A stretch of 64,000 bases of DNA from an uncultured Acidobacteriota bacterium (GCA_963741955.1 CAVUKB010000004.1:128001-192000), one strand, 5' to 3'. Shown: positions 8,085 through 52,234, numbered from the stretch's first letter. Translations and numbers: made by a program. Notes: generated from the letters alone by a model not told the origin.

Positions 8085-8720
8085 GGGGTCACAGCTTCCC
8101 TTCTATACAGTTCCAAGGCAGCGTCAGCGTTAGGAGTGGCTCATGGAGCTTGCTCGCATCTATCTTTCGATCCAATGATCGGAAGATCGGGGCCAGGCCT
8201 TGGATTCTCGGGAGAAATGGGGTCACAGCTTCGCTTCTCGGTCCGATCCTTCAGATTTGCGGTCCGACGCAATACTGATGGGTGGCTGTTGGCCGGTCGC
8301 GGGACCGTTGGGAAGGAAGAGGGTCAGGGGGCTTCGCTCGTCGGTCAAGTCGATCGGAAGAGGTGGGTGGCGAGATGCGTGACGGTCCGAGTCGCGTCCG
8401 ACCTGCACCCGACGTGCGAAAGACAGGCGACTTGCGCTGGTTTTCGCGCAACGACCGGGATTTCGGCCGATCTCGGACAGAGCTCCGCCACGTCGATTCA
8501 GATCGATCTTCGGTTTTCGGGAGGCGGAGCCCGCCTCAGAACGGTGGTGGGCCGACTGAGTCGCGGATGATATCCGGGGGCGGAAGCATCGGCCAGATCG
8601 GAAGCGGACGCGCCGGAGGGGAGTCCGGAAAATGAAGAAAATGAAGGGTCAGGCCTGCGTCTCTCGCTTATTCCTCTAAGTAACCGAATATACGCGAGTT
8701 ACTCGTCTGTTTGTCGCGCG
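8085..8720. repeat. Cluster of GGGGTCA end motifs (8085, 8189, 8219, 8321, 8646) with 3'-tip relic of Y1 transposase (8536-8630, minus)
   Basis: Repeated GGG(G)TCA(C/G)..CTTCG. Minus strand encodes PIWPMLPPPDIIRDSVGPPPF, as at 15682, 44004 and (diverged) 51637. Confidence 0.75.
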
Positions 8721-8729
8721 ACGGGACTT

Positions 8730-8939
8730 GATGCGGCCCTTTCGCGGCGTTGTTGAGTTCTCGGATGTTCATCCACTGCTCCTGTTCGATCACTTGATTC
8801 CTCCGCCCTCCGGCTCGCTCCGCTCGCCTCCGGACGGAGGAATCATCACCCAGCACGGTTCTCCCCGGCGGAGCCCCTTCCCCTCAGGTGGTCAACTTTT
8901 ACTTCTTCGCAGTGTGTCACTTTTACATCTTCATCGACA
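8730..8939 (-). mobile_element. IS21-family left-end relic with start of istA
   Basis: Minus strand begins TGTCGATGAAGATGTAAAAGTGACAC..GTAAAAGTTGACCAC (TGT end plus internal repeats), then VIEQEQWMNIREL. Abuts Rhs sequence at 8940. Confidence 0.6.
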
Positions 8940-8940
8940 C

Positions 8941-11373: not shown

Positions 11374-11506
11374 GGGGCCAGGCCTTCGATTCTCGCTTGC
11401 GTGTGTAGCGACGCCGACGGAGCGACGTGCTCTGCCTCTGAGAAGAGATGGGTCAGGGCTTTGCCTGTCGGTTGTCCATCGTAACTCACTGCCGCAGCGT
11501 CACTTA
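11374..11506 (+). repeat. Two GGGGTCA end motifs; second carries a TAA-N19-TTA box (11482-11506) abutting Rhs-B coding sequence
   Basis: GGGTCAGGGCTTTGCCTGTCGGTTGTCCATCG TAACTCACTGCCGCAGCGTCACTTA; near-identical copy at 24937-24995. Confidence 0.75.
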
Positions 11507-14450
11507 GCGTCAACGTCGACTCCATCCAGCGGACGCTCTTCGGCGGCCAGACGCCACTCCCTCTCCTCACCGCGAGCTACCGCAACGCGGGACGTCCCGA
11601 TGTCCGCGCCGTCCAGACCGATTGCACCGCGATCCCGAACTGCACGCCGAGCTCGTTCGCGAGGAGATACGGCTACGACAGCGAGACCGGACGGCTCGAC
11701 GAGATGCGCGTCGAAACGGCGGGCGGGATGACCCTCGCCGGATCGCGCGTCGGCTTCGACGGGCTCCAGATCAACGACATCGAGATCCTCGGCGTGTCGA
11801 ACGGCGCGCGTCATTCGCGTTTCGCGTACGACGCCAGGAGCCGCCTCGCCGGGTCGATCTACGGCACGACCACCGACGCGCAGCCGACTCCGGGCGCGCC
11901 GAGCACGAGCCAGGCCACCGAAGAGCTGACCCCTGCCGACTTCCGCTCCGGCCAGGAGCGGACGCCGCAGCTCGACTCGGCGACGCGCTCGGTCCTCGCC
12001 TCGGGCGGGATCGACCTCTCGCTGCTCGACCCGCCGTCGATGACCGCGGCCGAGAGCGCGGGACACAAGATCGACTCGATCACCCGCGGCTCCACCACCG
12101 AGGCGCTCCACTACCCGCAGTCGCAGAGAACCGAGGACGGGACGTTCGTCTACGAGTGGGACGAGAAGGGGAGGCTCACGAGCGTCACGGAGAAGCCCAC
12201 GTCCGCGAACGGGAAGATCCGGCGGATCCTGTACGACTACGACGGCAACGACCGTCTCGTCGGACGCCGTGCGGAGATGGCCGAGGTTACCGATCCCGCG
12301 GCAGACCTCGCGACGCTCAGCTGGGAGCCGGCTCGGATTTCTCCCACCATCTCTGCTGCGGAGGCGGATAGCGGCCTGTCTGCTGCGTTGCGCTTGCTTC
12401 GGCTCCTCGACATAGTCACCACTATGCCTTCGTCGCCGAAGCTGCGCACGCCTTGCATCCAGACCCCTCTCCACCTTCTCGCGACGAGACGGTGAGAGAA
12501 ATCCGAGCCGGAGCCCGGTCCCGATGTCCTCGCGAGCGACGGGCTGCCGGCGGACGTCACGCTGGTGTGGGATCCGCTCTCGGACACGCTCGTCTCCATC
12601 TTCAAGGCGGGGGCGAGCCGGAACGTATCGATCGACCCGAATGGCGGACTCCTCGCGCAGTTCATCCACGGCGGGCTCTCGTACGACGACCCGATCGAGA
12701 CGACCCGCGTTTCCACGCGCCCGAGCACGACTGGCAGCGAGATCGGCCGCTTCTATCCGGTTTACGACGAGGCCGGGACGGGGAACCTCGACGCGGTGCT
12801 GAACGCGAGCGGGGAGATCGTCGCCCGCAACGTGCCGAACGACCCGTTCGGCGCGCACGAGCTCGATCTCAACGGCGCGGCGGTCGACGGGATGGCGATC
12901 CGCGCCGCAAAGGACCGCAACGGCCATCTCTCCTCGGTCGACGTCACGGTGCGGACCACCGAGGCGCTTAGCGCGGCGACGCTCGCAGCGGGTCTGCGGC
13001 TCGCGGCGGTGGACGGCGGGGGAGCGGTGGTAAGATCCTCGGGCGCAGTCCCGCAGCTCATTGACAACGATCCGTATACGGCACGCTTCACGCTGACTCC
13101 CGCGCAGTGGACCGCGCTGACGGATGCGTCTCCGGTGGGACGCTCACGCCGGCGGCGATGTCGGTCGCGGTGACGAAAGACCTCCGGGCCGCGGCATGGG
13201 GATCGGACGTCCCCGTTCTCCCGGCGCCCGACTGGGCGACCGCATCGCAGCCGGTGACGAGCTCCGGGGAGCTTCCGGTGGAAGTGCGCGAGTCGCTCTC
13301 GAGCCTCTCGGCCTGGCTCGCCGGGGTCCCGGCGGACGGCGAGGCGACGAAGAAGCTCTACGAGGTCGACTCGCTCGCCCTCCTCGCCTCGGCAGCCCCC
13401 GCCTCAGGAGGCGGCGAGAGTCCCATGGGCGCGATGCTCACCGCCCGCTTCCAGGCCCAGCCCTTCACTGAGCCGCTCACCCGCCACAACTACGTCCGCG
13501 CGAGATGGTACGACCCGGAGACCGGGACGTGGCTCTCGCCGGATCCGCTCGGGTACCGGGATAGCTCGAACCTGTACGCGTTCGCGGGCGGAGATCCGGT
13601 CAACGGAAGGGATCCGAGGGGGGCGCAAACTGCGGAGGATGACCCGAGAGATGTAGCGGACAGCGGCGTCGACATGTATTACGACGCCCGCAAGAGAGAA
13701 ACGCAGGCTCTCAAGACTGCTGGAAAGATTGGGAGAGCTGGATATCAGGTTCTCGATCTCGCGACTGACTTCGCGCCGGGCATCGGCGTATTAAAGATTC
13801 CGCTCCCTTTCATCGAGGCCTACAAGCGTGGCGGACGACGAGAGCTCATGCGCATGGGCCTAGATGCCGGCGCGGTCGTCATGATCTCCGCTGTTCTCAC
13901 ACACCGGCTCCACCCTAAAATTCAACTTACCAAGGAGGAACTGGCGCTCGAAGAGAAAGCTGAGTTCAAGCTATCGCTCGAAGCAGACGAGCTGGAGGCG
14001 AAAGCAGCCTCACTTAACGCCTCAAGTGGCCTACCAACCACCAATCCTCGACGATTGCTAGCTGGAAAGACCTCATCCGAGATGGGACTCGACTTTCAAC
14101 GGTCCGTTCATGAAGCGCTCGGCATTCCAGAGAATACGGCAAAGTTCACGGGAACAGCTCGGTCAGGGAAACTCGTTAACACCGAACCAGATCTGTACGG
14201 GCTGAGGACCGGCGTTACCGAAATTAAGGACGTTCGTGAGATCAGCTTCGGCGAGCAATTGCAAGCTCAGTTCGACGTCGCGAGGCAGTCGAACCAGTCA
14301 TTTAACCTGATCATAGGTCCCCAAACGGAAACTGTCTCGCGAGCACTACAGCAGGCCATTCGATCTCGTGGGGGTGTGATCGTTTAGTACGATGCCGCGA
14401 CGGGAAAGTGGCGGTACGTGAAATTTGATCGCAATAAGGTGGTTCGATGA
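11506..14450 (+). pseudogene. Orphan Rhs-B cassette with Tox-REase-7-like tip (MITE insertion, frameshift ~13137, TAG at 14385)
   Basis: Rhs core RARWYDPETGTWLSPDPLG. Tip EPD...TEIKDV..ISF.EQL....A.....FNLII....TVS..L. Frame continues past TAG to TGA at 14450. Confidence 0.8.
12329..12510. mobile_element. 182-bp MITE inserted in Rhs-B stem
   Basis: TIRs CGGCTCGGATTTCTCCCACCATCT / AGACGGTGAGAGAAATCCGAGCCG, GAGC on both flanks; absent from the paralogous stems at ~25815 and ~47595. Confidence 0.85.
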
Positions 14451-15336: not shown

Positions 15337-15681
15337 GGGTCAAGGAAGAGGGTCGGGCCTTCGCTCATCGCTCGCCCATCGTGCCGCGAAGATCGGGGTC
15401 AGGCCTTCGATTCTCGGTCGCGAGTGTAAGCGGCTGCATGGTCTGTGGTTAGCGACACGGTGACTTTGACTCTGAACGGAGAAAGCGGGGTCAGGTGCGT
15501 CGCTTCTCGGTTGATTCGTCAGATGCTCGATCGAATGCGGCGTAGTGGACTGGTGTCGATGGAGATCAGAACGGATTCGGCCTCCGTCTCGTGCCGAAAC
15601 CTGGACCGGGCGTCACTTGGAACGAGGCTCCGCCAGGGCGAATCGTCAGGAGTGATCAGTTTTCAGGGGATCGCGGTTGCC
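15337..15681. repeat. GGGGTCA motif cluster (15337, 15350, 15395, 15487); block homologous to ~43710-44003
   Basis: Direct sequence similarity; TAA-N19-TTA box at 15427-15451. Confidence 0.75.
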
Positions 15682-15991
15682 TCAGAACGGTGGTGGGCCG
15701 GCTGAGTCGCGGATGATGTCCGGGGGCGGAAGCATCGGCCAGATCGGAAGCGGACGCGCCGGAGGGGAGCCCGGGACTCCGGGCTGAAGCGACGCGAGGC
15801 ACTGGTCGGCGAGAACGCGGAGAAGAGGATCATTCGCCAGCTCGCGCTCGGAACGCGAGATCAAGTTCGAGACGTGTCCGGTGCTGCCGAGGCGCAAGGT
15901 GGCAGCGATCGGACGGAGCTGCTCGGCGCTCTCGTATCGGCCGAGCCACGCGGCCAGCATCCGTGCCGCGCCGCCTCGGCCGTGACGAATC
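15682..15991 (-). pseudogene. C-terminal relic of Y1/RAYT-like transposase (DnaA-C-like HTH tail)
   Basis: AWLGRYESAEQLRPIAATLRLGSTGHVSNLISRSERELANDP; the homologue at 51637-51910 is joined to a RAYT N-terminus. Cut by ISL3. Confidence 0.65.
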
Positions 15992-17575
15992 GGATCTCCT
16001 AACAGGTGTGTAGCAGAGTTCATAGGCCGAGAGGATGGAATGCGATTGCTGACGTACAGAGGAACGCCATTGCGATCAGAGCTTCCGCGGTGTGAAAGCC
16101 GAAAGCGCGGTGACTGAGCATTCGGATCTTGTTGTTGCAGCCTTCAGCAACTGCATTCGTGAGTCGATACTCGAAGTAACGGCGGATGCCAGGCCATTTC
16201 GCCGCGACGGTTCGCGCGAAGCGAACGAGGGGTTGAATGCGGCTATGAACCGCGGACTGATACCAGCGCTTGAACCGTCGATCAGCTTGGCGGACGGACG
16301 AGGAGTCATAGATTTCCTGAAAGGATTCCTTGACCAGGTAACTGCGAAAGAGGGTGTGATTCATCCGCGCGAGCTCCGAGAGTTTCGCCTCCTCGGCATC
16401 ACGCAGGTTCCAGGGGTTCTTCAGGAGGACGAACCGAGTGGATTTGAGAGCGGAGCGCTCCTCGCCGGTGGCCTTTCGCATCTCGTCCCGCCTCACCTGA
16501 TCGATCGCATTCCCGAGGAGTTGGACCACGTGGAACCGATCGAAAACGACCTCGGCGTTCGGCAGTCGGTCGCGAACAGCTTTCTCGAAGGCCGCGCTCA
16601 TGTCGATGCTCACCAGACGGATTCGCGCGCAGCGCTCGGGGCCGAGCAGATCGAACAGCCCGTCGAGAACCTCTGCACTTTTACCCTTCGCCGCCCAGAT
16701 CATCTGCCCGGTCTCGTGGTTCGTGACCACGGTCATGAACTTCTTCGGCCGCCCCCAGCAGATCTCGTCGATGCCGATCCGGGTCAGATTCTCGAGCGCG
16801 TTCGGGTCGCGTTTTTCGGCAACCACTCGAGCGGCGATCCGTCCGGCCGTGAGCCAGCTGACCTTGAAGTACGCCGAGACCGCGGTTTGATTGGATCGCT
16901 GCAGAAACCAGGCAAGCTCGTCTTCGAACGCGCGGGTGAACATCGAACCAGGCCGTGCCCACGGAACCGCGGCCGTTCGCACCCCGCAGCGGCGGCAACG
17001 CACCCGCGGCAGATCCGCCCGCAGGATCACCCGGCATCCCCAGAGGCCGAGATGACGCCATTCGCGATGCTTCATCACCGTTCCGTGAAGCTCGGGAGCA
17101 ACCCGTCCGCACCCTCCGCACCGCGGACGTCTCCACGTTGGACTCACGTCGAGATAGAGACTCCGAGCTTCGAACCGAACCCCGCGAACCGTTACGTTTG
17201 CCATGTTGAGCAACTTCCGGAACAATGTCGTCAGGCGCACCGTGCCTGTCCTCCCCGTGTCTTGGTTTCATCGACTACAGACTACGGGAAATGGGCAGCA
17301 CGGTTCGCCGATTCCAACCTGCTATCGCTGCTTCGATCTTCACCTCTCCACGAGCAGCGACTTTCGGGGCACCTTCAGATCCTTCCGCGACGGCGGGGCA
17401 AGTTGTGGGAACGGCGGAAAACGCGGCGGCCGGGTGGCGGCGTTTTCCGCGGTTTCCACAACTTCGCTTTCCGAACGCTTCGGCGAACACCGACTTGCTC
17501 CTCGAAAACAGCCGCGTCGCCGTTCCTGCATGCCTCCGACAATCATTCCGCACCTACACACCTGTTAGGAGAACC
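15992..17575 (-). mobile_element. ISL3-family insertion sequence
   Basis: 22-bp IRs GG(A/T)TCTCCTAACAGGTGTGTAG; no target duplication. Confidence 0.9.
16020..17240 (-). CDS. ISL3 transposase
   Basis: CxxC zinc finger, IGIDE, SIDMS, VFDRFHV, TNAVAEGCNNKI. Confidence 0.95.
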   Translation of the reverse strand: MRLTTLFRKLLNMANVTVRGVRFEARSLYLDVSPTWRRPRCGGCGRVAPELHGTVMKHREWRHLGLWGCRVILRADLPRVRCRRCGVRTAAVPWARPGSMFTRAFEDELAWFLQRSNQTAVSAYFKVSWLTAGRIAARVVAEKRDPNALENLTRIGIDEICWGRPKKFMTVVTNHETGQMIWAAKGKSAEVLDGLFDLLGPERCARIRLVSIDMSAAFEKAVRDRLPNAEVVFDRFHVVQLLGNAIDQVRRDEMRKATGEERSALKSTRFVLLKNPWNLRDAEEAKLSELARMNHTLFRSYLVKESFQEIYDSSSVRQADRRFKRWYQSAVHSRIQPLVRFARTVAAKWPGIRRYFEYRLTNAVAEGCNNKIRMLSHRAFGFHTAEALIAMAFLCTSAIAFHPLGL

Positions 17576-19711: not shown

Positions 19712-19731
19712 CAGCGACCTAACTCCAATAT

Positions 19732-20073
19732 GGGGGCGAGGCCTTCGCCTGTCGGTTCTTCGTCCTAAGCCACTGTCGAAGCAGCACTTCGGTTGCGCTG
19801 TCTCTCGGCGCGGATTGCACTCCATGCCCCTCCGCAGTGGTCGTCCGGGCCCTCGAGAGCCGGCGCGTTGCTCCGAACCTATTCTACGAGGAGTAGAACC
19901 CTGGGCGCGAGAGCCGAGGGACTCTCGGTCGCCTGGTACGACCACGTCGACTCGAGTTTCGCGCCGCCGCGTTCCACGTCGCCCGGCGCGGCAACGGGCC
20001 GATTCAATTCGCGGAGACGTCGTTTTCGTGCAGCAACTTGGACGCATCGACCGAAGAGCGAAGGCCTGACTCC
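19732..20073 (+). mobile_element. 342-bp non-autonomous element with inverted GGGGTCA-type ends containing decayed Y1 transposase 5' end
   Basis: Left GGGGGCGAGGCCTTCG, right CGAAGGCCTGACTCC; internal LVRPRRLEFRAAAFHVARRGN resembles MARPLRLEFPGAVFHVTSRRN. Confidence 0.7.
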
Positions 20074-22666
20074 GAACAACCGCCTCGGGTTCGAGGACGG
20101 AAAGCCGGTTCCGCCGTCCGGGAACGAGATCCCCGGCCTCTCCTGGCCGACCGGCCCCGTGACGGGATTCCCGAGTGGCGAGGTCACCGTCTCGGGAGGA
20201 ACCGTGGTTTGGGGCGGCGCGCTCGAGCGAGACACGGCCGCTCGCATCAAAAAGATCGATCTAGCCGGAGTCGTCTCCCATGGTTCCAGCTACACCTACG
20301 ACAAGGACCGTGGATGGCTCCGCGAGTCGATTCTGGTGCGGCCGGACGAGAAGCTCAGTTCGGTCCCGCCCACGATCGATTCGTTCGTCCCGGCCGACTT
20401 CCTCACTCTCCACGAAGCTCCTTCGGCACTCTCTACAGCGCAGAACCAGAAGCTCGGGGAGAAGGCGTGGTCGATCGAGCCCGCAACCTGGAGCGCCTCG
20501 CGGCAGACCGGGAGCCGGATCGGAACGCTGACCCTCTCTCTCCCGGGTCTGGACGACCTCTCCCGCACGTTCCAGTACACCGGCGGCCGGCGCACCTCGG
20601 ACGGAGTCTGGACGTACACGTGGGACGATTTCGAGCGGCTCACCGCGATGGAGAACCCCTCGACCGCGCGTCGCATCGAGTTCCGGTACGACACGAATGG
20701 GCGGGTGATCTCCCGGACGGCATTCCGAACCGATGGCATCGATCCGCTCCTCGAAGACCGTGGGGACATTCTCGCGAAAGACGGGCTTCCGGCCGACACG
20801 ACGTTCGTCTGGGATCCGATCGCCGACCGTCTCGTGGCGATCTTCGAAGGTCGCCAGACACTGGTCCCCGGCGGCCCGAAAGCGTACGACGGTCTCCTCC
20901 GCCAGATGCTCCATGGCGACCAGGGGTACGACGATCCGGTCGAGGTCCTCAAACGCGTCGGCGGCAGCTCGGCGGCCCCGGAAGTCGAGCACCTCTATCC
21001 GGTGGTCGACCACTCGGGGACCGGCTCCCTCCAGGCGGTCCTCGGCGCGGACGGCAATCTCATCGAGCGCGTCCTCTACGGCAGCGCCTGGGGAGCGAAG
21101 CCGAAGTACCTCCAGGGACCGCTCGTCGAGAACGCGAAGCTCGAAGCAGAGAAGGACGGCAGCGGAAATCTCACGAAGGTCACCGCCGAGATCCGGCTGA
21201 CCGAGAAGATCGCCGAGAGCTCGCTCCCGGGCATGGTGATCCATCTGCTAAAGGCCGACGGCAGCGAAGCCGCGGGAACGACGGGTACGCTCACGGTCGA
21301 TTCGAAGAAGCCGAACGTCCTCCTCTGGACGATGACCGGCGCGGAGTGGCAGTCGTGGACCGCCGCGAGCGGAGCGGCGACGCTCGAGATCGCCGTCACG
21401 GACCAGCTCCGCGCGGAAGCGTGGGGGGAAACGCCGGTCATGCCGGCCCCCGAGTGGGCGCCGACGCTGTATGGTGTAAAATCGAGTGCATCACAACCGT
21501 GGCAGCGTCGCGAGTCCCTCGCAACGCTCGCCACCGAGCTCTTTGACAAGACCGCGGCCGGCGCGACCCGCGACCGGGAGATCTACGACATCCCGGACCT
21601 CTATCTCGCCGCCTCGTCCGACTCCAAGACGCAGCTCCTGACCGGCTTTCACGCCTATCCCTTTACGGAACCCGCATCCGGGCTCGTCTACCTCCGCGCA
21701 AGGTGGTACGACCCAGGGACGGGGAGCTTCCTCAGTCCTGACCCGCTGGGGTATCAGGACTCCTCGAATCTCTACGCATTCTGCGGCGGCGATCCGGTCA
21801 ACTGCTCGGACCCGACCGGCAACGCTGGCGTCAAGAAGGGATCGATCAGCTATCCCGACAATCCTCTGCCAGGTGAGACGCGCGAGCAGTACGTCACTCG
21901 GCTAACCAAGAGCGGCCAGGTCAGCTTCATGGACGCCGCAATGATGGGCGAGTGCTACTTCACGAGCCAATGCGGCAGCGCCCGAATCACGGAGATCGCA
22001 CAGCAGGTCGATACCCGTGTAAAGGCACAAGCGAAGCTGATGCTGACGATGGAGGCTGTCGGAGTCGCGACGGTCTTCACGGGCGGTGCAGCGGGCGGGT
22101 TGGTGACCACATACGGTGGCGGGACATTGCTTGCCACAACCATCGGCGGAGCTGTCGGAGGAGCAGCGGGGCAGGGAACGGCAGACCTCATCAGAGGCAA
22201 GCGTTCGTCGGGCGCTGACTACGCACAGTCAGCGCTGCTCGGAATCGGCGGTGCTTACATTGGTGGCGCCGTCATGGGCGGTGTGGATCCAGGGCCGCTC
22301 ACGATCTTCAAAGCTCCGGTTCGATCGTTTCCGACGCTAACGTTCAGGTACTCGGAGACGCCTGGCATCGCCGCGAACATCGAGACAGCGCAGCAGTCTG
22401 GAACACCAAGTACGCTTTCACGGGCGACGAACAGAAGCTTGATTCGTGCGAATCGCCGTGTAGCTCTGCGGGGTCAGACCGCTCCGGGGTCGGGTTTGTC
22501 GCTCGATGAATATCCGTTCGCATCGACGTATCAAGGTGGATCAGGGGCGCAGGTAGCGGCCGTGCCGGTGCACGAACAGAACGTACAGGGAGGGAAGCTG
22601 TCCATCTTCTATCAGGAGCATGCGATCGGTGAAGGTGACTGGTTCCATGTAGTGATAAAACCATGA
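20074..22666 (+). pseudogene. Orphan Rhs-A cassette with NucA/NucB-type DNase tip
   Basis: Stem homologous to ~5070-6800; tip NRRVAL...LDEYPFASTYQGG...EQNVQGG. Confidence 0.88.
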
Positions 22667-39425: not shown

Positions 39426-39471
39426 GAGTATGTATTATGCAGATATACACCGCTCCTTCAAGGGCTTTCTG

Positions 39472-39846: not shown

Positions 39847-40202
39847 CCGACTCTCCGCAGCAGCTCTGCCAGTCCGTCGAGGGTCAGCCCCTCGACTCGA
39901 ATCCCGGAAGGCGTGATCACGATCGCGGATGACGCCCGGAGCTCATCAGATGCTCCCGATCCCGCCTCGACCAACTCCACGGCCCGGAAGCTCCCGCCCC
40001 GCCGCTGCTCCCACTTCGCGAACGTGTAGCGGTTCACTCCGAGCTCCTCTGCGATCTCCGAATCGCTCTTGCCTTCGGCCCGCGCCTGTCGCGCGTAGAG
40101 CACCGCACGTTCCCTCAGCTCTCGCGGATACCGCCGACGCTCTCGCCGCCGGCTCTGCCGCTCCAGCTCGCGCCGCAGCTTCTTCACTTCCCGATCGATC
40201 AT
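39843..40202 (-). CDS. tnpA: IS66 TnpA HTH protein
   Basis: RRRYPRELRERAV...IAEELGV...TPSGIRVE. Confidence 0.8.
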   Translation of the reverse strand: MIDREVKKLRRELERQSRRRERRRYPRELRERAVLYARQARAEGKSDSEIAEELGVNRYTFAKWEQRRGGSFRAVELVEAGSGASDELRASSAIVITPSGIRVEGLTLDGLAELLRRVG

Positions 40203-40275
40203 CGTCCGCTCCTTTCCCGGAGAAGACTGACCGATCCGCTGCCTCAACGCCAGACGGGGTACGGCGAGGAGTTAC

Positions 40276-42934
40276 CATCAACCTCCTCGGCGTCTCGAAC
40301 GGCGCGCGTCATTCGCGTTTCGCATACGACGCCAGGAGCCGCCTCGCCGGGTCGATCTACGGGACGACGACCGACGCACAACCGTCCGTCGGCGCTCCGA
40401 GCACCGGGCAGTCCACCGAAGACCTGACCCCCGCCGACTTCCGCTCCGGGCAGGAGCGGACGCCGCAGCTTGACGCGACGGCGCGCTCAGTTCTCGCCTC
40501 GCGCGGGATTGACCTCTCGCTCCTCGACCCGCCGTCGATGACGGCCACCGAGTCGGCGGCGGGACACAAGATCGAATCGATCAGCAGCGGCTCCACGACC
40601 GAGACGCTCCACTACCCGCAGTCGCAGAGAACCGAAGATGGGAGCTTCGTCTACGAGTGGGATGAGAAGGGGAGACTGACGAGCGTCACCGAGAAGCCCA
40701 CCTCCGCGAACGGGGAGATCCGGCGGATCCTGTACGACTACGACGGCAACGACCGACTCGTCGGACGGCGCGCGGAGATGGCCGAGGTTACCGATCCCGC
40801 GGCGGACCCGGACACACTCTCCTGGGAGCCGGCTCGGATCTCTCCCACCATCTCTGCTGCGTTGGCGGATAGCGGCCTGTCTGCTGCGTTGCGCTTGCTT
40901 CGGCTCCTCGACATAGTCACCACTATGCCTTCGTCGTCGAAGCTGCGCACGCCTTGCATCCAGACCCCTCTCCACCTTCTCGCGACGAGACGGTGAGAGA
41001 AATCCGAGCTCGAGGCCCGTCCCGACGTCCTCGCGAGCGACGGGCTTCCGGCGGACGTCACGCTCGTGTGGGATCCGCTGTCCGATACGCTCGTCTCCAT
41101 CTTCAAGGCGGGGGCGAGCCGGAACGCATCGATCGATGCGAACGGCGGGCTCCTCGCGCAGTTCGTCCACGGCGGGCTCTCGTACGACGACCCGATCGAG
41201 ACCACCCGCGTTTCCACGCGCCCGGGCACGACTGGCAGCGAGATCGACCGCTTCTATCCGGTCTACGACGAGGCCGGGACGGGGAATCTCGACGCGGTGC
41301 TGAACGCGAGCGGCGAGATCGTCGCGCGCAACGTGCCGAACGATCCGTTCGGCGCGCACGAGCTCGATTTGAGCGGCGCCGCGGTCGACCGGATCGCAAT
41401 CAGCGCCGAAAAGGACCACGACGGCAACCTCACTACGGTGGAGGTCACGGTGCGGACCACCGAGGCGCTGAGCGCGCCGACGCTCGCAGCGGGTCTGCGG
41501 CTCGCGGCTGTGGACGGCGGGGGAGCGGTGGTAAGATCGTCGGGCGCAATACCGCAGCTCATTGACAACGATCCGTACTCGGCACGCTTCACGCTGACGG
41601 CGGCGCAATGGGCCGCACTGACGGATGCGGCCCCGGTGGGGACGCTCACGCCGGCGGCGCTGTCGGTCGCGGTGACGAAGGAGCTCCGGGCCGCGGCGTG
41701 GGGAGCGGACGTTCCGATCCTCCCGGCGCCCGACTGGGCGACGGCGACGCAACCGGTGACGAGCTCCGGCAATCTTCCGGTCGAAGTGCGCGAGTCGCTC
41801 TCGAGCCTTTCGAGCTGGCTCGCAGGGGTTCCGGCGGACGGCGACGACAGGAAGACGCTCTACGAGGTCGACTCGCTCGCCCTCCTCGCCTCGGCGGCGC
41901 CGGTCTCGGGCGGCGGCGAGAGCCCGATGGGCGCGATGCTCACGGCGCGCTTTCAGGCCCAGCCCTTCACCGAGCCCCTCACCCGCCACAACTACGTCCG
42001 CGCGAGATGGTACGACCCGGAGACCGGGACGTGGCTCTCGCCCGATCCCATGGGGTACCGCGACAGCTCGAACCTCTATGCGTTCGCAGGCGGGGATCCA
42101 GTCAATGGGAGGGATCCGAGGGGAGAGGGGGATCCCCGCGTGCGACTCCCAGCCCAACTCGATCCTAGTCACGGAATGTTGGCATCGTCGGCGCCGATCC
42201 GGCCGGCGCTCACGAAGGTGACGGCGATTTGCGTCTCTTGCGTACTCAAGAGACTGCGTGACGCCATTTTCGAGTGGGAAGCGCAGCGTCAACAGAGCCT
42301 TCGAAGAAGACAGATAGAAGACCGGATTCGCGCGGAGAGGTTCTTAGCCAATTGGTTTCATCTTTCTCCCGAAGAAGCGAGAGATCAGCTTGATTTCTTG
42401 GAAACCGTCGGCCAAGTAGGGAACCTCATGATCGGCGTGGGTAAGGTCGGACCGGAAGTCCCGATCTCGGGCGAACTCGGGCTGAGCGCAGAAACGGAAG
42501 GAGTCGCAGCGGTTCCCAACAGTGGCCTTGATGTGGTCCCAAGACCGAACATGCCGGTGCGGAGAGTTCAAGATCCGATGGGACGTATTGTAACCGTCTG
42601 GGGACAGGCAGAGCACGCTTCGTCGAAAACTCCCGGTCATGCCGAGGCGATCAATCAGACCGTCGACGAAATGATCTCCAGCGGCGAATACGAGTACATT
42701 ACTATTCAACGGAGCTGGCGGACCGCGACAGGGAGAGTCGGGGAAAGCGCCCGCATTCCTGACATCATCGGTGTTCGACGAACCGGCGAGGTTGATGCGA
42801 TCGAGATCATGTCCAAGACAGATACCGAACTCGGATTACAGGAGAGGCTGCAAAAAGCGATGGAATCAGTGCCGGAGTCGCGAAGAGGATTCATATCGGT
42901 GCGACCTCCGTTAGACGGAGGGGGTGGATGGTAA
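40276..42934 (+). pseudogene. Orphan Rhs-B cassette (MITE-interrupted) with PD-(D/E)xK-like tip
   Basis: Stem as at 25266 onward; tip RIPDIIGVRRTGEVDAIEIMSKTD. Confidence 0.8.
40830..41009. mobile_element. Second MITE copy at the same stem position
   Basis: Near-identical to 12329-12510. Confidence 0.85.
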
Positions 42935-43695: not shown

Positions 43696-43716
43696 GGGAA
43701 TCGTGATCGGAAGATC

Positions 43717-44270
43717 GGGGCCAGGCCTTCGATTCTCGCTTGCAGGTGTAAGCGACTCGATGGTCTGTAGTTAGCGACACGGTGACTTTGACTCTGAACG
43801 GAGAAAGCGGGGTGAGCGCGTCGCTTCTCGGATAATTCGTAAGATGCTCGATCGAATGCGGCGTAGTGGACTGGTGTCGATGAAGATCGGAACGGATTCG
43901 GCCTCCGTCTCGTGGCGAAACCTGGACCGGGCGTCACTTGGAACGAGGCTCCGCCAGGGCGAATCGTGAAGAGTGGTCAGTCTTCAGGCCGATCGCGCCC
44001 GCCTCAGAACGGTGGTGGGCCGGCTGAGTCGCGGATGATGTCCGGGGGCGGGAGCATCGGCCAGATCGGGACGGGCCGCTTCGGAGCGGATTCGGGGACT
44101 CCGGCCTGAAGCGACGCGAGGCACTGGTCGGCGAGAACGCGAAGGAACGGATCATTCGCGAGCTCGCGCTCGCAACGCGAGATCACGTTCGAGACATGCC
44201 CGGTGCTGCCGAGGCGCAGGGTGGCCGCGATCGGGCGAAGCCGTTCGGCGCTCTCGTAGCGCCCGAGCCA
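43717..44270. mobile_element. GGGG(T/C)CA motif block plus Y1 transposase C-terminal relic (44004-44270, minus)
   Basis: Homologous to 15395-15950; TAA-N19-TTA at 43749-43773. Confidence 0.7.
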
Positions 44271-44380
44271 CGATGATCGAGGCCATTCTCGGCTCAGCCC
44301 CTCCCGCGGCACGCCTTATCCGAGGTGCCTTCGGACGGCGGCGGAGTTTCTCATCGGTAAGGCCTGATCTCGACTCTCCA

Positions 44381-44641
44381 CTATTCGTACGCTTTGCTGC
44401 GATGGCGTATCCGCACGATGTCGACGGCCCTTTTTCTGTCATCAATCGCGTAGATAACGCGCCAGTCGCCCGCGCGAATGCGCCACAGATCGAGCGCACC
44501 TTTGAGCTTCTTCACGCCTGGAGGACGCGGATTGCTCGATAGTGCGGCGATCTTCGCTTCGATCCGTGATGCGATCGTCGGCGCGAGCTCGTCGAATTCT
44601 TTCGCTGCCGATGGCTTGACGGTGATGCGGTATTCAGCCAC
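44381..44641 (-). CDS. relE: RelE/ParE-family toxin
   Basis: YRITVKPSAAKEF...NPRPPGVKKLKG..LWRIRAGDWRVIY. Confidence 0.9.
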   Translation of the reverse strand: MAEYRITVKPSAAKEFDELAPTIASRIEAKIAALSSNPRPPGVKKLKGALDLWRIRAGDWRVIYAIDDRKRAVDIVRIRHRSKAYE

Positions 44642-44828
44642 GCGCCTGCCGTCGGCGTCGTGCAAGCCGGCGTCGGACGACATCGAATGGGATGCTCTTC
44701 TCCGCCTGGCGCTCCTCGGCGACGAGCTGATCGTAGAAATCCTCCCACGCATCGCCGTACAGATCGAGGTCGATCAGGACGGCGACCTTTTTGCCCTTGT
44801 CGTCGGTCACGAAGTGAATCCCTTCCAT
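44634..44828 (-). CDS. Cognate antitoxin
   Basis: 64 aa, FVTDDKGKKVAVLIDL, overlaps toxin start. Confidence 0.8.
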   Translation of the reverse strand: MEGIHFVTDDKGKKVAVLIDLDLYGDAWEDFYDQLVAEERQAEKSIPFDVVRRRLARRRRQARG

Positions 44829-44928
44829 CTCATCTCCCGAGTCGGTCGTTCGCCGAAGCTTTCGCCATCCGGTGTGTACAACATGATCGCACGAATGAGG
44901 CTTCCCGGGACGCACTCCACGTGAAATC

Positions 44929-45153
44929 GACCTGACCCCCGCCGACTTCCGCTCCGGCCAGGAGCGCATGCCGCAGCTCGACTCGGCGACGCGCTCGGTT
45001 CTCGCCTCGCGCGGGATCGACCTCTCGCTCCTCGACCCGCCGTCGATGACGGCCACCGAGTCGGCGGCGGGACACAAGATCGAATCGATGACCAGCGGCT
45101 CCACGACCGAGACGCTCCACTACCCGCAGTCGCAGAGAACCGAGGATGAGAAG
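44929..45153 (+). pseudogene. Isolated ~225-bp Rhs-B stem fragment between outward-facing motifs
   Basis: DLTPADFR...YPQSQRTED; begins at GACCTGACCCC and is followed by GGGGTCAGGTCTTCG at 45158. Confidence 0.8.
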
Positions 45154-45157: not shown

Positions 45158-45350
45158 GGGGTCAGGTCTTCGTCTCTCGCATGCTTCCGTTAAACCACTG
45201 TGGAAGCGTCACTTCGACTCATCCCATCGCGCCGTGGATTGTACGGCATCCACGCCGACGCCAGCCGTTCCTGCCTCCGCTCACCCTCCTCGAGACCCGT
45301 CTCCGATTCTACGAGGGGTAGAACCTCGGTATTTCGCGAAAGCCGAGGTA
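45158..45350 (+). mobile_element. GGGGTCA element end carrying the transposase upstream region
   Basis: ATTCTACGAGGGGTAGAACCTCGGTATTTCG matches the minus strand of ~52045-52087. Confidence 0.65.
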
Positions 45351-45581
45351 CTGTGGGGGTCAAAAACGATTGTCACGTCGGATTAGGAGTGTCGAAGTGG
45401 CGAGAGAGGCGTGCGAGAGGGAGCTCCGCCGACTCGGTCGATCGTCTTTCAAGGCGAGGCCGGATCGAATTGTCGCCATTCGAGGCGGTGATCCGCTGAG
45501 GATCTGACGTGGAGGTAGCGCTTTCGCTCTCGGCCTGGTCGGCCGCGGCGGATGATCTTTGAAAAGCAGTTCGGTCTGACG

Positions 45582-46657
45582 CTACGCTGCGCGATCGCGC
45601 ATCTCGAGCCGGTACTCGTGATGGAGCCCGCCGAGGTGCGGGATGGCGACGACGGCGGCGCCGTTCGGGAGTCGGTGTCGGCCGGAGGCGATGAGCCGGG
45701 GTTCGGTGTAGTAGGCGCGGTAGTGGGCGAGAAGGCGATTGAGGTGGCGGACGCCGAGGGGCCAGATCCGGTCGAGAAGCTCGCGACGGAGGGTGCCGAT
45801 CATCCGCTCGGCGAACGCGTTCGCCTGCGGAGAGCGCGGAGGGATGCGGAGCGCTTCGATGCCGAACGAGGCGAGAGTCGCGTCGACACCGCCCCAGAGC
45901 GGGTCGTTGTCGCGGACGAGGAAGCGGTGCCGATGATCGCACGGGATCGCTTCGCGCAGCTTCTGATTGATCCAGTCGCGAGTCGGGTTTTCCGTTGCTT
46001 CGAGGCATAGCAGCCGTCGTGACCCGATCTCGAGCAGGACGAGGACGAAGACCTCCCGGAGCTTGCCGCTGAGTGAGGGAACGTAATCGACTGCGAAGTC
46101 CATCGCGAGGGTGACGTTCGCATGGTTGCGGATGAACGCCGACCATCGCTGATCGCCACGCGGGCGCGGGCCACGTACCTCGCGAATATAGCGGCGGACC
46201 GTGTTCCGTGAGACGGAGACCCCGAGCTTCGCGATCTCCCGGAGGATCCGCCCCGCTCCCCAGAGCCGGTTCTCGCGCGCCATCTGCCGCACGAGCTCGC
46301 GCGTCTCTTCCGGGAGCCTGCGCCGCCGCAGATGCGCTGACGCCGCCGCATCAGAATCGCGACCCACTCGCGCCGCCATCGCATCACCGTGCGCGGGGTG
46401 AACGCGATCGAGAGATCCCTCCAACGAGGTACGAGCCGCGAGAGGATCGCGAACACGATCTTCTCGCTGCGCGTCGCGCGCCGGACGCTCCTTTTCGTCA
46501 TCCGATACAGCCGCAGCTGCCGCTCGAGCCAGAGCGCGTCGAGCGTATTCGCTTGAACGAGCGTAAGGCTCAGAAAGACGATGACGAGCAACTCGCCGAG
46601 AGCGGAGAGGAGAAGAAGAGAGCGGAGCAAGAGTTGACCTCGTGAGGGGCGCGGCAC
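45582..46657 (-). pseudogene. Integrase-core (rve/DDE) transposase, frameshifted
   Basis: MARENRLWGAGRI, WSAFIRNH..AMDF, FLVRDND, PPRSPQANAFAER, HLGGLHHEY. Confidence 0.85.
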
Positions 46658-46775
46658 TTGGTGGGCGTGCGCGCTTGGCGAAGGATCATATCAATGCGAA
46701 GATCCGTCTGGAACGGCGTCTAAGGGGACGGAGTCGAATACCCGTCGACGTGACGCGGTAATGCGATGAATTCGA

Positions 46776-47138
46776 TCAAGAGCGCGACTCTCGATGAGTC
46801 GAGCGGGAAGTGATTTCAACGAGAGTCTCGCCATTCTCGATCATCCGGAGTGCTTCCGGCAGGGCCTTCTCGAGGAGGTGCCGGAGAAAGGCGTTCGATG
46901 TGTTACCCGAGGTAATCCAGATCACCCGGGGCGGTGCACCACGGCTCTCGAGAAGGCGAGGGAAGTCGGCATCTTTCGTGATCACCACCGCATCGGCCGT
47001 ACGTGCGGCGTCGAAAATCTCGCGATCGGATGCATCGCGCAGACCGAGTCGTTTGATCGAAAGAGCCTCGACATCGAAGGTGGCGGTGATCCACGGCGCG
47101 AGCTCGGGAGAGAGTTGTGCGTCAACCCAGAGGATCAT
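46776..47138 (-). CDS. DUF5615 PIN-like toxin
   Basis: WVDAQLS...GLRDASDREI...VITKDADF. Confidence 0.88.
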   Translation of the reverse strand: MILWVDAQLSPELAPWITATFDVEALSIKRLGLRDASDREIFDAARTADAVVITKDADFPRLLESRGAPPRVIWITSGNTSNAFLRHLLEKALPEALRMIENGETLVEITSRSTHRESRS

Positions 47139-47359
47139 GCTGCGATCACAGGATGGTCGATACGGTGACTCGCGTACCGCAGGCTCGCCTGAATGTCCTC
47201 GATCTCGAGGTCCGGCATTTCGATCAGGATTTCGTCGGTGGTCAACCCCGATGCAAGGAGATCGAGGACGTCGGAGACGCGGATGCGCATACCGCGGATG
47301 CAGGGACGACCTCCACACTGTTCCGGATCGATCGTGATTCGGGGTTCGAATTCAACCAT
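47135..47359 (-). CDS. DUF433 antitoxin
   Basis: RITIDPEQCGGRPCIRGMRIRV. Confidence 0.92.
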   Translation of the reverse strand: MVEFEPRITIDPEQCGGRPCIRGMRIRVSDVLDLLASGLTTDEILIEMPDLEIEDIQASLRYASHRIDHPVIAA

Positions 47360-49550: not shown

Positions 49551-49843
49551 TCCGTAAAGAAGTTCTGGAGCTAAAGCTTCTTGGGCCGCTGCCGGATCAG
49601 CACGCAGATGAAGAAGCGTTCGAAAGGCACGAGAAGGTGCTGTCGGCGATTACGCCGCCTGTCAGTGCTGAAGAGGCGAAGATCCTCGTCAGACTGTTCG
49701 GGCCGGATGACGCATACGGCGCAGCATGGACGCTTCTTCATCTGATTGAGTCTGCGCCGAGTTGGCCAATCGAGGAGTGCCTGCGGGGCGCCGGTCTGTG
49801 GATTGACACCCTCCGGCGTCGGGCGGCCGATCTGAAGCGGTAG
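49547..49843 (+). CDS. Putative immunity protein (Imm30-like)
   Basis: ATGA overlap; FGPDDAYGAAWTLLHLIESAP. Confidence 0.75.
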   Translation: MIRKEVLELKLLGPLPDQHADEEAFERHEKVLSAITPPVSAEEAKILVRLFGPDDAYGAAWTLLHLIESAPSWPIEECLRGAGLWIDTLRRRAADLKR

Positions 49844-51275
49844 TGTCCAAAAAGTTCTGCAAAAAGGAAAAGGGCCAAGGAGGTCTCCTGTAAAGTTCAA
49901 GTCGCTAAAGCAAGAACGAGAACAGGAGAGAACTCGATGGCCCGAAAGGATAGTACCGCAGTTGACGTCAGAAGACTCGTCGAGGAGTCCGCAGATCCGG
50001 TGCGAGCGATCGTGAAGGAGACGATCCAGCAGATTCTCGAGTGCGAGATGGAAGAGGCATTAGGGGCTCGGAACGGGGAACGAACAGCGGAGCGGCTGGG
50101 GTACCGAAGCGGGTACTACGAACGGTCGTTCATCACTCGAGTCGGGAAGCTTGAGCTCCGGATTCCGCAGGACCGAAAGGGACTGTTTCGAACGGAGTTG
50201 TTCGAGCGGTATCAACGGAGCGAGAAGGCGTTGTTCGCGGCGTTGACGGAGATGTACGTGCAAGGGGTGTCGACGCGGAAGGTCAAAGCGATCACCGAAG
50301 AACTGTGCGGACACTCGTTCAGCGCGAGTTCGATCAGCGAGATCACAAAAAGGCTGGACCAGCAGTTGGAGGCCTTCGCGAAGCGAAAGCTGGAAGAGGA
50401 GTACCCGTACCTGATCATGGACGCGAGATACGAGCGGATCCGAGAGAACGGAACGATCCAGAACCGAGCAGTGCTGATCGCGATCGGGATCAACAAGGAT
50501 GGACGGCGTTGCATCCTGGGAGTGGAGCTGGCGCACCGAGAGAGTCGGAACAGTTGGACTGAGTTTCTGGTGGGCCTACGCGAGCGGGGCCTGCACGGGG
50601 TCGAGTTCGTGGTCAGCGACGACCACGCAGGGCTGAAGGCTGCGATCCGGGAGGTACTGACCGACGCGGCCTGGCAGCGCTGCTACGTCCACTTTCTACG
50701 AAACGCACTCGATTACCTGCCAAGACGAGGAGATCACGACTGCCTGCAGGAGTTGCGATGGATCTTCGGGCGACGCAACGTCGAGGAGGCCCGCAGAGAC
50801 CTGGCGGCTTGGATCGCGAAGTGGGAAGGAAAGTATCCGAAGCTATGCGACTGGGTAGAGCAAAACATCGAAGAGACGTTGAGCTTCTATCGGTTGCCGG
50901 CCGAGCACCACAAGCACCTGAAGTCGACCAACATGCTCGAACGGCTCAACGAAGAGATCAAGCGACGGACCCACGTGGTCCGGATCTTCCCGAATGAAGC
51001 AAGCTGTCTGAGGCTGGTCCGGGCGCTGGCGGTCGAGACGCATGAGAACTGGATCGAGGCGACTCGGTACCTGAACATGGATCTGTTGGCCGAACACAAG
51101 AAACTCATGCTGCGAGGTGTCGCGTAGGAACCAAGGGGTGTGGAAACTGCGGAAAACGCCGGTCGGCGTTTCCCGCAGTTTCCACACCCCCCCACCACCA
51201 TCAACCCATGGATCCGAGGAGAACCGAACAGGAGACCCAATAACTCTAGTTTTGCAGAACTTGACAGACACAACT
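49839..51275 (+). mobile_element. IS256-family element
   Basis: Imperfect IRs sharing AAGTTCTGCAAAA; target duplication TCTGAAGC(G) at 49831 and 51276. Confidence 0.92.
49937..51127 (+). CDS. IS256 transposase
   Basis: GVSTRKV, YLIMDA, VSDDH.GL, QRCYVHF.RN, STNMLERLNEEIKRR. Confidence 0.96.
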   Translation: MARKDSTAVDVRRLVEESADPVRAIVKETIQQILECEMEEALGARNGERTAERLGYRSGYYERSFITRVGKLELRIPQDRKGLFRTELFERYQRSEKALFAALTEMYVQGVSTRKVKAITEELCGHSFSASSISEITKRLDQQLEAFAKRKLEEEYPYLIMDARYERIRENGTIQNRAVLIAIGINKDGRRCILGVELAHRESRNSWTEFLVGLRERGLHGVEFVVSDDHAGLKAAIREVLTDAAWQRCYVHFLRNALDYLPRRGDHDCLQELRWIFGRRNVEEARRDLAAWIAKWEGKYPKLCDWVEQNIEETLSFYRLPAEHHKHLKSTNMLERLNEEIKRRTHVVRIFPNEASCLRLVRALAVETHENWIEATRYLNMDLLAEHKKLMLRGVA

Positions 51276-51306
51276 TCTGAAGCGATAGCACGAGAAGGTG
51301 GGGGTG

Positions 51307-52234
51307 GGGGTCACGCCTTCGTCTCTCGCTTGTTCCTCTAAGTGACCGAATATACGCGGGTTGCGCGTCTGTTTGTCGCAGCGCGAAAGGAATAGAGCGC
51401 AAGGAATAGGGTCACGCCTTCGCTCATCGGTTCTGCCGTCGGAGATCTCGACGGGACGCAGCGGGAAGCGGACGTAGAGACCGTGGTCGGGATCCAATGA
51501 GGTCGTCTCGATCGGTTGGAATCGGTGATCAGGCCATCGAAGTCTCGCTTCGGAAGCGATGAGGCTGCAGTCCAGACGCAGCTCCGCCCTGAAGTCGTGG
51601 AGGTCCGGGTGATTTGGAGCAACCTGGCGCGTCGCCTCAGAACGGCGACGGGCCGGGTGCGTCGCGGATGATGTCTGGCACCGGGAGCATCGGCCAGATC
51701 GGGATGGGCCGCTCGGGAGCGGATTCCGTCGTCCCCGCGAGGAGCAATGCGAGGCAGCGATCGGCGAGATCACGGAGAAGCCGGTCATTCGCGAGCTCGC
51801 GCGCTCGCAACGCGAGATCAGGTTCGAGACGTAGCCGGTACTGCCGAGGCGCAAGAGGGCCGCGATCGGGCGAAGCCGTTCGGCGCTCTCGTAGCGCCCG
51901 AGCCACGCGGTCAGCGGGTGAGGAACACTAGGCGATCCGCATCGCATCGGAAGATCGGCTTGCGCTCGTTGCGGCGCGAGGTCACGTGGAAAACCGCGCC
52001 GGGGAACTCGAGGCGAAGTGGTCGTGCCATGCGATCGAGAATACCTCGGGTCTTCCGAAATACCGAGGGCTCTACTCCTCGTGGAATCGGCGGCGACTCC
52101 CGAGGCCCTGCTTGGAGGCGCGAGTCGGTGATCCGGCAGCGGGTGTCGTAGAATATCGTGCGACAAACGAGGCGAAGAAGTAACGCCGTGACAAAGAGAT
52201 AGGGGAGAGAACCGACAGGCGAAGCCCTGACCCC
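51307..52234 (-). mobile_element. Element bounded by inverted GGGGTCA ends carrying an internally deleted Y1/RAYT-like transposase (51637-52030)
   Basis: MARPLRLEFPGAVFHVTSRRNERKPIF...FL joined directly to the AWLGRYES... C-terminus; catalytic HUH/Tyr core missing. Confidence 0.75.

Follow-up and report, generated by a model that had tools for sequence, protein, structure and literature searches.

Relics of a TIRYT/TIRtron element in the spacers of an Rhs toxin array from an uncultured Acidobacteriota bacterium

A 64,000-nucleotide stretch of DNA from an uncultured Acidobacteriota bacterium (GCA_963741955.1, CAVUKB010000004.1:128001-192000; the window, with a G+C content of about 63%) was analysed for a short motif that recurs through an array of Rhs toxin genes, and the motif was identified as the terminal inverted repeat (TIR) of an element of the TIRYT/TIRtron kind. 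The left edge of the window lies inside a long Rhs gene (1-7645, + strand), in whose open frames Pfam recognised DUF6531, RHS repeats and a Tle1-like phospholipase tip. Housekeeping genes begin at 52.6 kb with a glycosyltransferase, a methyltransferase and a molybdopterin oxidoreductase with Fe-S and Rieske partners (Pfam). The interval between the two is occupied by partial Rhs cores arranged in an array, their varied tips (Pfam) including WHH/colicin-DNase, Tox-REase-7, PT-HINT and NucA/NucB (followed by a SUKH-1 gene), and several tips without a known family. The orphan cores aligned to residues 1037-1616 of the main protein, belonged to three lineages (types 1 to 3) and parted from the main protein after the GDPVN region at the core end. 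The main Rhs gene was itself read in two overlapping frames (1-2457 and 1961-7645, overlapping at 1961-2457) with RHS repeats in both, which may reflect either a frameshift, so that the 'intact' gene is itself broken, or an assembly error.

Cassettes C1 to C9 were mapped on the + strand. A type-1 core was found in C1 (8941-10812; from main residue 1287, with the WHH/colicin-DNase tip), C4 (20074-22666; from residue 1037, with the NucA/NucB DNase tip, followed by the SUKH-1 gene at 22663-23247) and C6 (30373-32938; also from residue 1037, with a tip outside known families). Type-2 cores were found in C2 (11506-14387; three frames, Tox-REase-7 tip), C5 (24995-27660), C8 (40276-42934; two frames, beginning at an IS66 end) and C9 (47459-49550; two frames), and in a 218-nt core fragment at 44929-45146 (+). 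The C7 orphan (33931-36354) has a type-3 core from main residue ~1133, and C3 (17629-18843) is a PT-HINT toxin piece whose Rhs core is gone (Pfam). Because C2 (11485-14387), C8 (39917-42934) and C9 (47414-49550) need two to three frames across their cores, they are pseudogenes as they stand. Pfam recognised an immunity family for only one gene after the tips, the SUKH-1 gene; the others were family-less. The data suggest that 8-52 kb is an ordinary Rhs polymorphic-toxin locus, with one long Rhs gene followed by about 10 orphan cassettes, each of a partial core, a variable tip and an immunity gene. This is probable as one part of a joint reading, the other part of which concerns the spacers and is given below. 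The initial annotation had put the motif between the cassettes of a genuine Rhs toxin/immunity array, and the Pfam matches and core alignments bear this out.

The word GGGGYCASNNCTTCG gave 12 exact matches in the window against 0 expected, and it was absent from 100 shuffles. Nine of the 12 were repeat heads; the other three (11919, 25407 and 40417, - strand) represented one paralogous site of the type-2 Rhs core and were not repeat copies. Alignment of the copies (A1) gave a conserved unit of ~26 nt, rGGGyCAsrsCTTCGnyynTCGsTyg. A 28-nt profile searched with nhmmer recovered 26 copies (E <= 0.024), all in 8085-52234 (23 on +, 3 on -). All 20 forward copies of an earlier list of about 20 were among them, as were three of its four inverted copies, whereas the inverted copy at ~44939 proved to be an 11-nt piece of the Rhs-core site; the copies at 8189, 15349 and 43809 were additional. 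The profile found no copy in 1-8084 or 52235-64000, in agreement with the earlier statement that 52.6-64 kb is free of the motif. These flanks hold only ~620 nt of non-coding DNA, in which ~2.1 copies would be expected at the density of the array (P(0) ~0.12), so the absence of the repeat there says little.

The TIR heads matched the pattern GGGGWSAS exactly in 11 of 26 cases and with one mismatch in the remaining 15, and homology between copies started 0-17 nt ahead of the GGGG head in all 11 pairs compared. The copies were loose, paired or clustered. A cluster of four cores was located at 8085-8348 (+; heads at 8085, 8189, 8219 and 8320; nhmmer, A1) and a cluster of three at 15349-15515 (+; heads at 15349, 15395 and 15487); further groups were located at 33763-33902, 43717-43836 (+; a B-type core at 43717 and a second core at 43809; nhmmer) and 51307-51435. 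Single A-type cores were found at 8645-8672 (+), where the block 8638-8745 is 88% identical to 29883-29990, and at 29890-29917 (+), followed by a headless TIR piece at 29983-30001. A B-type core at 11374-11401 (+) retained ~43 nt of the element, and a C-type core with its leader at 45158-45352 (+) had lost the codons and was followed by an IS3-like fragment. B-type TIR pieces, 93-97% identical to 43704-43756, followed both the main Rhs gene and C1.

When 12 units were folded as single-stranded DNA, no hairpin was common to them (z-scores -2.2 to +1.9), which fits TIRs rather than structures of the repetitive extragenic palindrome (REP) type. A GAAG box ahead of many heads was considered as a hairpin partner for the CTTC of the motif and was rejected, folding having given no consistent structure. 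None of the 26 heads carried GTAG, and an Rfam scan of the window returned only a group II intron at gathering score.

The site in the type-2 core is a 15-mer on the - strand at 11919-11933, 25407-25421 (in C5) and 40417-40431; the copies at 25407 and 40417 read GGGGTCAGGTCTTCG, the same as the head at 45158. It fits the TIR head pattern, agrees with the repeat profile over the first 15 positions only, and is covered in the Rhs protein by ...TEDLTPADF.... It may be a chance likeness, an old in-frame insertion or a target-like site. The left breakpoint of the 218-nt core fragment at 44929 falls within this look-alike. A similar look-alike was considered for the type-1 core where C4 and C6 break, and was rejected, the collinear stretch agreeing at 7 of 15 bases only (read by eye from alignment A2).

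Relics of the transposase were mapped by tblastn with P0002, an intact homologue of 350 aa from the database, which carries PF01797 and was retrieved at 78% identity by the C-terminal frame 15685-16002. Seven pieces were mapped, 72-92% identical to P0002 over their retained parts. C-terminal pieces were located on the - strand at 8539-8625 (residues 322-350; 72% identity, E 2e-10), 15685-15990 (residues 249-350, the part resembling the helix-turn-helix (HTH) of DnaA domain IV; 78%, E 1e-47; cut by an ISL3 end), 44007-44276 (residues 261-350; 79%, E 1e-42) and 51947-51640 (residues 249-350, frameshifted). The 5' pieces were located at 19933 (+, residues 1-21), 30232 (+, residues ~1-24) and 52030-51917 (-, residues 1-38). 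Relics of one transposase had been reported to flank the motif, and this held for the 3' sites and for these 5' sites; near 44900, however, tblastn with P0002 found no transposase codons, and only the TIR and leader at 45158-45352 were present. The residues H60, H62 and Y119 were invariant among 30 homologues (alignment A4), and none of the seven pieces covered any of them, so the window contains dead gene copies only. Pfam and NCBIfam matched nothing when run on the relic pieces themselves, because the pieces are too short, and the identity of the protein came through its database homologue.

Self-comparison showed that the window copies are parts of longer common blocks, from which the architecture of the element was read: a TIR of ~26 nt, a leader of ~200 nt, the 350-aa TIRYT gene, and a 3' flank with at least two inverted TIR copies. 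Only 51305-52234 (-) was classed as a TIRtron with both ends. It comprises a TIR (52207-52234), a 204-nt leader, codons 1-38, a deletion of residues 39-248, codons 249-350, and the inverted TIRs A' (51408) and A (51307), so that the TIR at 52234 (-) faces those at 51307 and 51408 (+); the open frame after the leader begins MARPLRLEFPGAVFHVTSR, and the C-terminal frame ends at 51640. With the deleted 210 codons restored it would measure ~1.56 kb, and a full TIRtron would be 1.5-1.6 kb long. A derivative of 341 bp resembling a miniature inverted-repeat transposable element was found at 19733-20073 (+), with a TIR, a 200-nt leader, codons 1-21 and an inverted TIR (20046-20073), and a second copy was found at 30032-30372 (+), where the block 30026-32112 is 96% identical to 19727-21813. 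In all, the DNA separating the cassettes contains at least seven TIRtron remnants, none of them catalytically competent, together with their loose TIR copies.

Pairwise dS (synonymous divergence) among the C-terminal relics was 0.34-0.71, with dN/dS (the ratio of nonsynonymous to synonymous divergence) of 0.20-0.29. Their divergence therefore took place while the genes still worked, ahead of truncation, and not among local copies decaying in place, which supports separate origins. Two of the relic regions, 15682-16023 (-) and 44004-44312 (-), are intact small frames of 113 and 102 aa with start codons present. They hold the DnaA-like HTH part only, dN/dS between them was 0.20, and P0001, a 191-aa C-terminal TIRYT fragment, is annotated in another Thermoanaerobaculia genome. 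Judged from sequence, such frames may be no more than young relics, or may be leftovers that bind DNA in a regulatory role.

The TIRYT protein, as predicted from its homologues, is a RAYT-like Y1/HUH nuclease with a DNA-binding tail resembling DnaA domain IV. P0002 scored 47 bits against PF01797 (cut-off 23), 76.8 bits against the RAYT model NF047646 (cut-off 80; two relatives scored 76.7 and 69.1) and 14.8 bits against the IS200 model NF033573 (cut-off 55). A profile of the 30 homologues (A4, positions 223-310) matched DnaA domain IV (2hcb/1l8q, E 4.9e-4), and the 30-homologue profile matched the E. coli TnpA-REP structure 4er8 weakly (E 0.052). The Pfam scan of P0002 gave no match to Bac_DnaA_C, and phmmer of P0002 against solved structures gave 0 matches; only the profile reached DnaA and TnpA-REP. 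Botulinum neurotoxin chains in the same profile table (E 0.27-0.53) were set aside as chance.

Quentin et al. (2018; PMC6006769) describe a Y1 subclass 2.1 of long proteins with a Bac_DnaA_C-like tail, equate it with the TIRYTs, or TIR-associated tyrosine transposases, of Di Nocera et al., and give GGGG[AT][CG]A[CG] as common to the inverted repeats that flank TIRYTs. Di Nocera et al. (2013; PMC3733652) named the elements TIRtrons, gave GGGGWSAS as the TIR consensus, described TIRs as moderately abundant families arranged in dimers or clusters, and found the acidobacterial TIRYTs to be a sharply defined group. The motif is the TIR of a TIRYT/TIRtron element, a kind already known. The initial annotation was thus right to take it for the end of a Y1/HUH transposase element, P0002 carrying PF01797 and the TIRs lying at the element ends, and its proposal of a new system falls, since the heads match the published consensus.

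Near relatives of the transposase relic bear Thermoanaerobaculia (Acidobacteriota) names, and the homologue family is very large (6968 of 8000 scored candidates at E <= 1e-20). Contigs shorter than 3 kb carried about half (60 of 120) of the homologues among the matches listed (counted by eye), a share that repeats breaking assemblies would give, as would equally the short contigs of metagenomes in general. A search of genome contigs with P0002 returned only two loci, both distant (51% and 37% identity). On a Rhodospirillum rubrum plasmid (L003) the TIRYT gene lies between inverted copies of GGGGTCAGACCCC. The repeat occurs there at six sites in 50 kb, two flanking the gene and four solo in intergenic DNA, and no Rhs gene was found. 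The solo copies fall within ~5.5 kb among a doc toxin gene, a DUF6447 gene, a hemolysin-type gene and rfbC, that is, among ordinary genes, so spread into nearby spacers is usual for such elements. A Skermanella plasmid (L004) has three tandem heads, GGGGTCAG, ahead of its TIRYT gene. In a Gemmatimonadales locus (L001), GGGGACGGAGCTTCGCTTTTCG lies ~146 nt ahead of the gene start; taken alone, this upstream motif exceeds chance only weakly, with 2 matches where 0.38 were expected and 11 of 200 shuffles also reaching 2, and no downstream partner repeat was found at that locus. Inverted repeats at a further locus (L002) were rejected as TIRs, their sequence being unrelated. A toxin-antitoxin pair lies directly upstream of the TIRYT gene on both plasmids (L003, 772-1382, doc; L004, 704-1232, MazEF), and in the window a ParE-like toxin gene with a small upstream gene (44381-44840, -) directly adjoins a TIRYT relic.

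Rhs cores begin directly after motif-bearing sequence at 11506/24995, 20074/30373 and 33931/37660. Each pair is a duplicate: 11450-12307 matches 24939-25798 (91%), 19727-21813 matches 30026-32112 (96%), and 33746-34130 matches 37475-37859 (99.7%). Since the junctions were copied along with their cassettes, they amount to three events and the special case at 44929. Four independent junctions had been claimed; the starts after motif-bearing ends were confirmed, and the count was not. At 11449-11505 (+) a C-type core and leader are cut 57 nt from the head and fused to a type-2 Rhs core, and the same junction recurs at 24938-24994 (+). At 33763-33930 (+), cores A (33763) and A' (33875) belong to an element cut after ~170 nt and fused to a type-3 core; the duplicate at 37475-37859 (+) contains 17 nt of the flanking open frame, TIRs A and A' and the start of the type-3 core, and stops at the IS66 end. 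The breaks at 11506/24995 and 33931/37660 are thus internal to the element, a result that end cutting by an HUH enzyme would not give. An intact outer TIR end meets an Rhs core only at 20074/30373. A cargo gene and an intron had also been described as clipped at motifs. The intron (RF00029) abuts 52234, and the open frame 33323-33766 (-) reaches the TIR head at 33763, which we read as a clipped gene.

The other cassette starts were of different kinds. Start 17576 is an ISL3 end (inverted repeats 15992-16013 and 17554-17575) and start 40276 an IS66 end (repeats at ~37858 and 40276), both as annotated before; 8941 had likewise been called an insertion-sequence (IS) end, but 8746-8940 ahead of it matched nothing else in the window on self-comparison. 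Nothing, whether TIR or IS end, adjoins the start at 47459, for which the lack of a motif had been noted at the outset. Cassette borders were thus of four kinds: an outer TIR end, a break inside the element, the end of another IS, and none. Integrons possess an integrase, attI and attC, and their cassettes are separated by a recurring short site. IS91/ISCR elements are an HUH family able to move neighbouring DNA, with Y2 rolling-circle transposases, not Y1. The array resembles integrons and the one-ended capture of IS91/ISCR in picture only, as its borders are heterogeneous, attI and attC are absent, and no integrase family was found among 55 frames scanned with Pfam.

The most likely of the readings is that dead TIRtron debris fills the spacers of an ordinary Rhs array, and, taken as a whole, we consider it probable. 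A role of TIRtrons in assembling the array is not supported. The locus would be a graveyard of mobile DNA. Active copies elsewhere may have inserted into it time and again, or the remnants may have come in with imported cassettes, as their right-hand flank. C-terminal displacement predicts the latter route, because in that model whatever is imported (core, tip, immunity gene and flank) still carries the left part of the donor's downstream DNA. The remnants would then have been trimmed by later insertions, deletions and recombination between repeats, like the ISL3, IS66, IS3-like and IS256 copies, and blocks of TIR plus core would later have been duplicated together with cassettes. That TIRs stand at cassette borders would follow from their filling the spacers; the borders would not be their work.

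Several points weigh against the debris reading. Intact outer TIR ends abut cut or interrupted neighbours (the Rhs core at 20074, the open frame at 33762 and the intron at 52235), and a TIR end is where two of the duplicated blocks start (11450/24939 and 19727/30026). The Rhs breakpoint at 44929 falls inside a core 15-mer identical to the TIR head at 45158, an identity seen in two of the three core copies (25407 and 40417). The truncated remnants mostly keep their left part and have lost the right, a polarity that calls for a directional process; the two copies of the 341-bp derivative and 51305-52234, which retain both ends, are exceptions. By the same donor-flank logic, such polarity is what C-terminal displacement would be expected to give. 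In a permutation on an approximate map, drawn by hand from open frames and Pfam matches with 7.5 kb of non-coding DNA in the array, six of the 11 cassette starts had a TIR no more than 90 nt upstream while duplicates were left uncollapsed (null mean 2.6, P = 0.019). When duplicated junctions were collapsed, 3 of 8 starts had a TIR (null mean 1.6, P = 0.19), and the adjacency was not significant; the enrichment at breakpoints that the initial annotation proposed to test was therefore seen only before collapsing. Finally, the repeat copies were counted within the 64-kb window, a scope that also weighs against the reading.

An alternative that we regard as unlikely, yet the strongest of the rivals, makes the TIRtron 3' relic a portable stretch of homology. 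Homologous recombination, with the Rhs core as its left arm and the relic, a conserved neighbour of Rhs cassettes in this lineage, as its right arm, would swap tip-immunity modules, and no transposase would be needed. C2 and C8 fit this pattern: their left flanks (cores, 11786-13621 and 40284-42123) and right flanks (TIR and relic, 15378-15950 and 43700-44272) are each ~90% identical, and the tips and immunity genes in between are unrelated. The B-type pieces that trail the main gene and C1 also fit, as does the divergence of the relics under purifying selection, expected of different donors. The full pattern was, however, present in only two of ~10 cassettes, the remaining right flanks differ (A type, C type, other IS), and the C2/C8 flanks could equally be explained by one old duplication followed by tip replacement.

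Less probable still is active capture, in which a TIRYT acting in trans would cut TIR heads and look-alikes and move the bounded segments (Rhs fragments, immunity and defence genes) into an integron-like array. The copies on one strand (23 of 26 on +) bracket cassettes, at 20074/30373 the Rhs core directly follows an outer TIR end, TIR ends start two duplicated blocks, and the 44929 breakpoint falls within the look-alike. Y1/HUH enzymes of the IS200/IS605 family form circular single-stranded intermediates (PMC6006769), and Jackson et al. (2009; PMC2935791) proposed that Rhs tips are imported through a circular intermediate, whose origin they left unexplained. A specific form of the idea, to which we likewise give little credence, is that a working TIRYT elsewhere in the genome would cut the TIR heads and the Rhs-core look-alike and free circles of TIR, core fragment, tip and immunity gene, which would enter Rhs genes by homologous recombination in the core. 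If so, TIRYT-made circles would be the missing circular intermediate of C-terminal displacement, TIRtrons would be the cassette-making machinery of Rhs arrays in this lineage, and an HUH nuclease would be tied to the long-open question of how Rhs tips move.

The observations at the junctions argue against capture. The window contains no intact enzyme, the element is broken 57 nt from its end at the 11506 junction and ~170 nt from it at 33931, other IS supply the ends at starts 17576 and 40276, the start at 47459 has no end beside it, and the adjacency loses significance once duplicates are collapsed. One look-alike breakpoint among ~8 is about what chance would give (a rough estimate, not computed). 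The copy map gave no sign of abutted TIR-TIR junctions of the kind left by circles, although no search aimed at them was made, and the available text of PMC3733652 and PMC6006769 reports no assay of a TIRYT acting on DNA. No evidence was therefore obtained for the integron-like capture by an HUH enzyme first proposed for this locus, none of the seven relic pieces retaining catalytic residues, two junctions being internal and the borders mixed. It is scarcely credible that selection keeps the TIR units in a regulatory or RNA role for the cassettes, as terminators, stabilisers or promoters, for although they lie 0-170 nt past the last gene of most cassettes and REP-type repeats are said to act so in other bacteria (PMC3733652), they are pieces of a transposon with its gene relics alongside, share no hairpin, and match no Rfam family at the gathering score.

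The debris reading was set beside known systems. Like published TIRtrons, the element has a RAYT-like Y1/HUH gene with a C-terminal DnaA_C-like HTH (seen in the homologue P0002, the window relics having no catalytic part), inverted repeats that flank the gene, a head that fits GGGGWSAS, and additional loose, paired and clustered copies; an acidobacterial group is also in print (PMC3733652). It differs in that all gene copies here are relics, at least seven of them within 44 kb in one Rhs array. Set against the published elements, the conserved TIR core is ~26 nt, and the internally deleted 341-bp derivative occurs twice. No link between TIRYTs and Rhs was found in the literature searched, PMC6329079 among it proving unrelated, and the text available from PMC3733652 and PMC6006769 does not mention Rhs loci. 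REPtrons (RAYT with REP/REPIN; as described in PMC3116915 and PMC3479197) have a related Y1/HUH protein, to judge from the NF047646 score of 76.8 bits and the weak TnpA-REP match, and their own short repeats likewise flank the gene and spread through intergenic DNA. In contrast to them, the element has no GTAG foot and no conserved hairpin, its repeats are long linear TIRs, its protein has the extra HTH domain, and it left many gene relics in place of one vertically kept copy. IS200/IS605 elements belong to the same HUH/Y1 superfamily (PF01797); the protein here, however, is more than twice as long and scored 14.8 bits against the NF033573 cut-off of 55. According to the text of PMC6006769, those elements have subterminal hairpins and no TIRs, whereas the element here has TIRs and no conserved hairpins.

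The array itself resembles the Rhs orphan arrays attributed to C-terminal displacement, as described in PMC2935791 and by Koskiniemi et al. (2014; PMC3967940), in that a full-length gene is followed by partial-core orphans whose tips diverge directly after the conserved core end, with immunity genes next. It differs from the described arrays in its three interleaved core lineages, its several frameshifted orphans, its unusually heavy load of mobile-element debris, and its acidobacterium-like host, which is not an enterobacterium.

The locus yields a usable definition of the TIRtron: a 26-nt TIR, a 200-nt leader and clustered 3' TIRs. Copies of the family are packed very densely here, their ends are clear, and they include a miniature derivative as well as a series of dated relics. 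It also shows how far transposon debris can make up the borders of an orphan array, and advises caution against reading such debris as a cassette system.

Other mobile DNA in the array was recognised by Pfam as an ISL3-family IS at 15992-17575 (-, 22-nt inverted repeats), an IS66-family IS at 37858-40276 (-, 28-nt inverted repeats), the IS3-like fragment at 45373-46690, and an IS256/Mutator-family IS at 49840-51274 (+). A 3' remnant of a group II intron at 52235-52554 (+) consists of a maturase tail (GIIM, E 0.0018) and domains V-VI (RF00029 at 52482-52554, 46.4 bits; Rfam) and is cut at the TIR end; the intron remnant (52203-52554, +) directly precedes the first housekeeping gene. A pair of genes for a DUF4238 protein and a Toll/interleukin-receptor-domain protein (28117-29856, -) lies between two cassettes and matched PADLOC PDC-S66 (1e-20) and DUF4238-Pers, making it a candidate anti-phage pair. 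A gene for a DUF5615 protein (46776-47318, -; E 6e-23) adjoins the IS3-like fragment. A second repeat family was also seen: two near-perfect palindromes of 27-28 nt, at 17400-17464 and 51135-51190, have the word TGTGGRAACKGCGGAAAACGC in common (4 matches against 0 expected). One lies in the ISL3 copy and the other in the IS256 copy, and the family is possibly REP-like.

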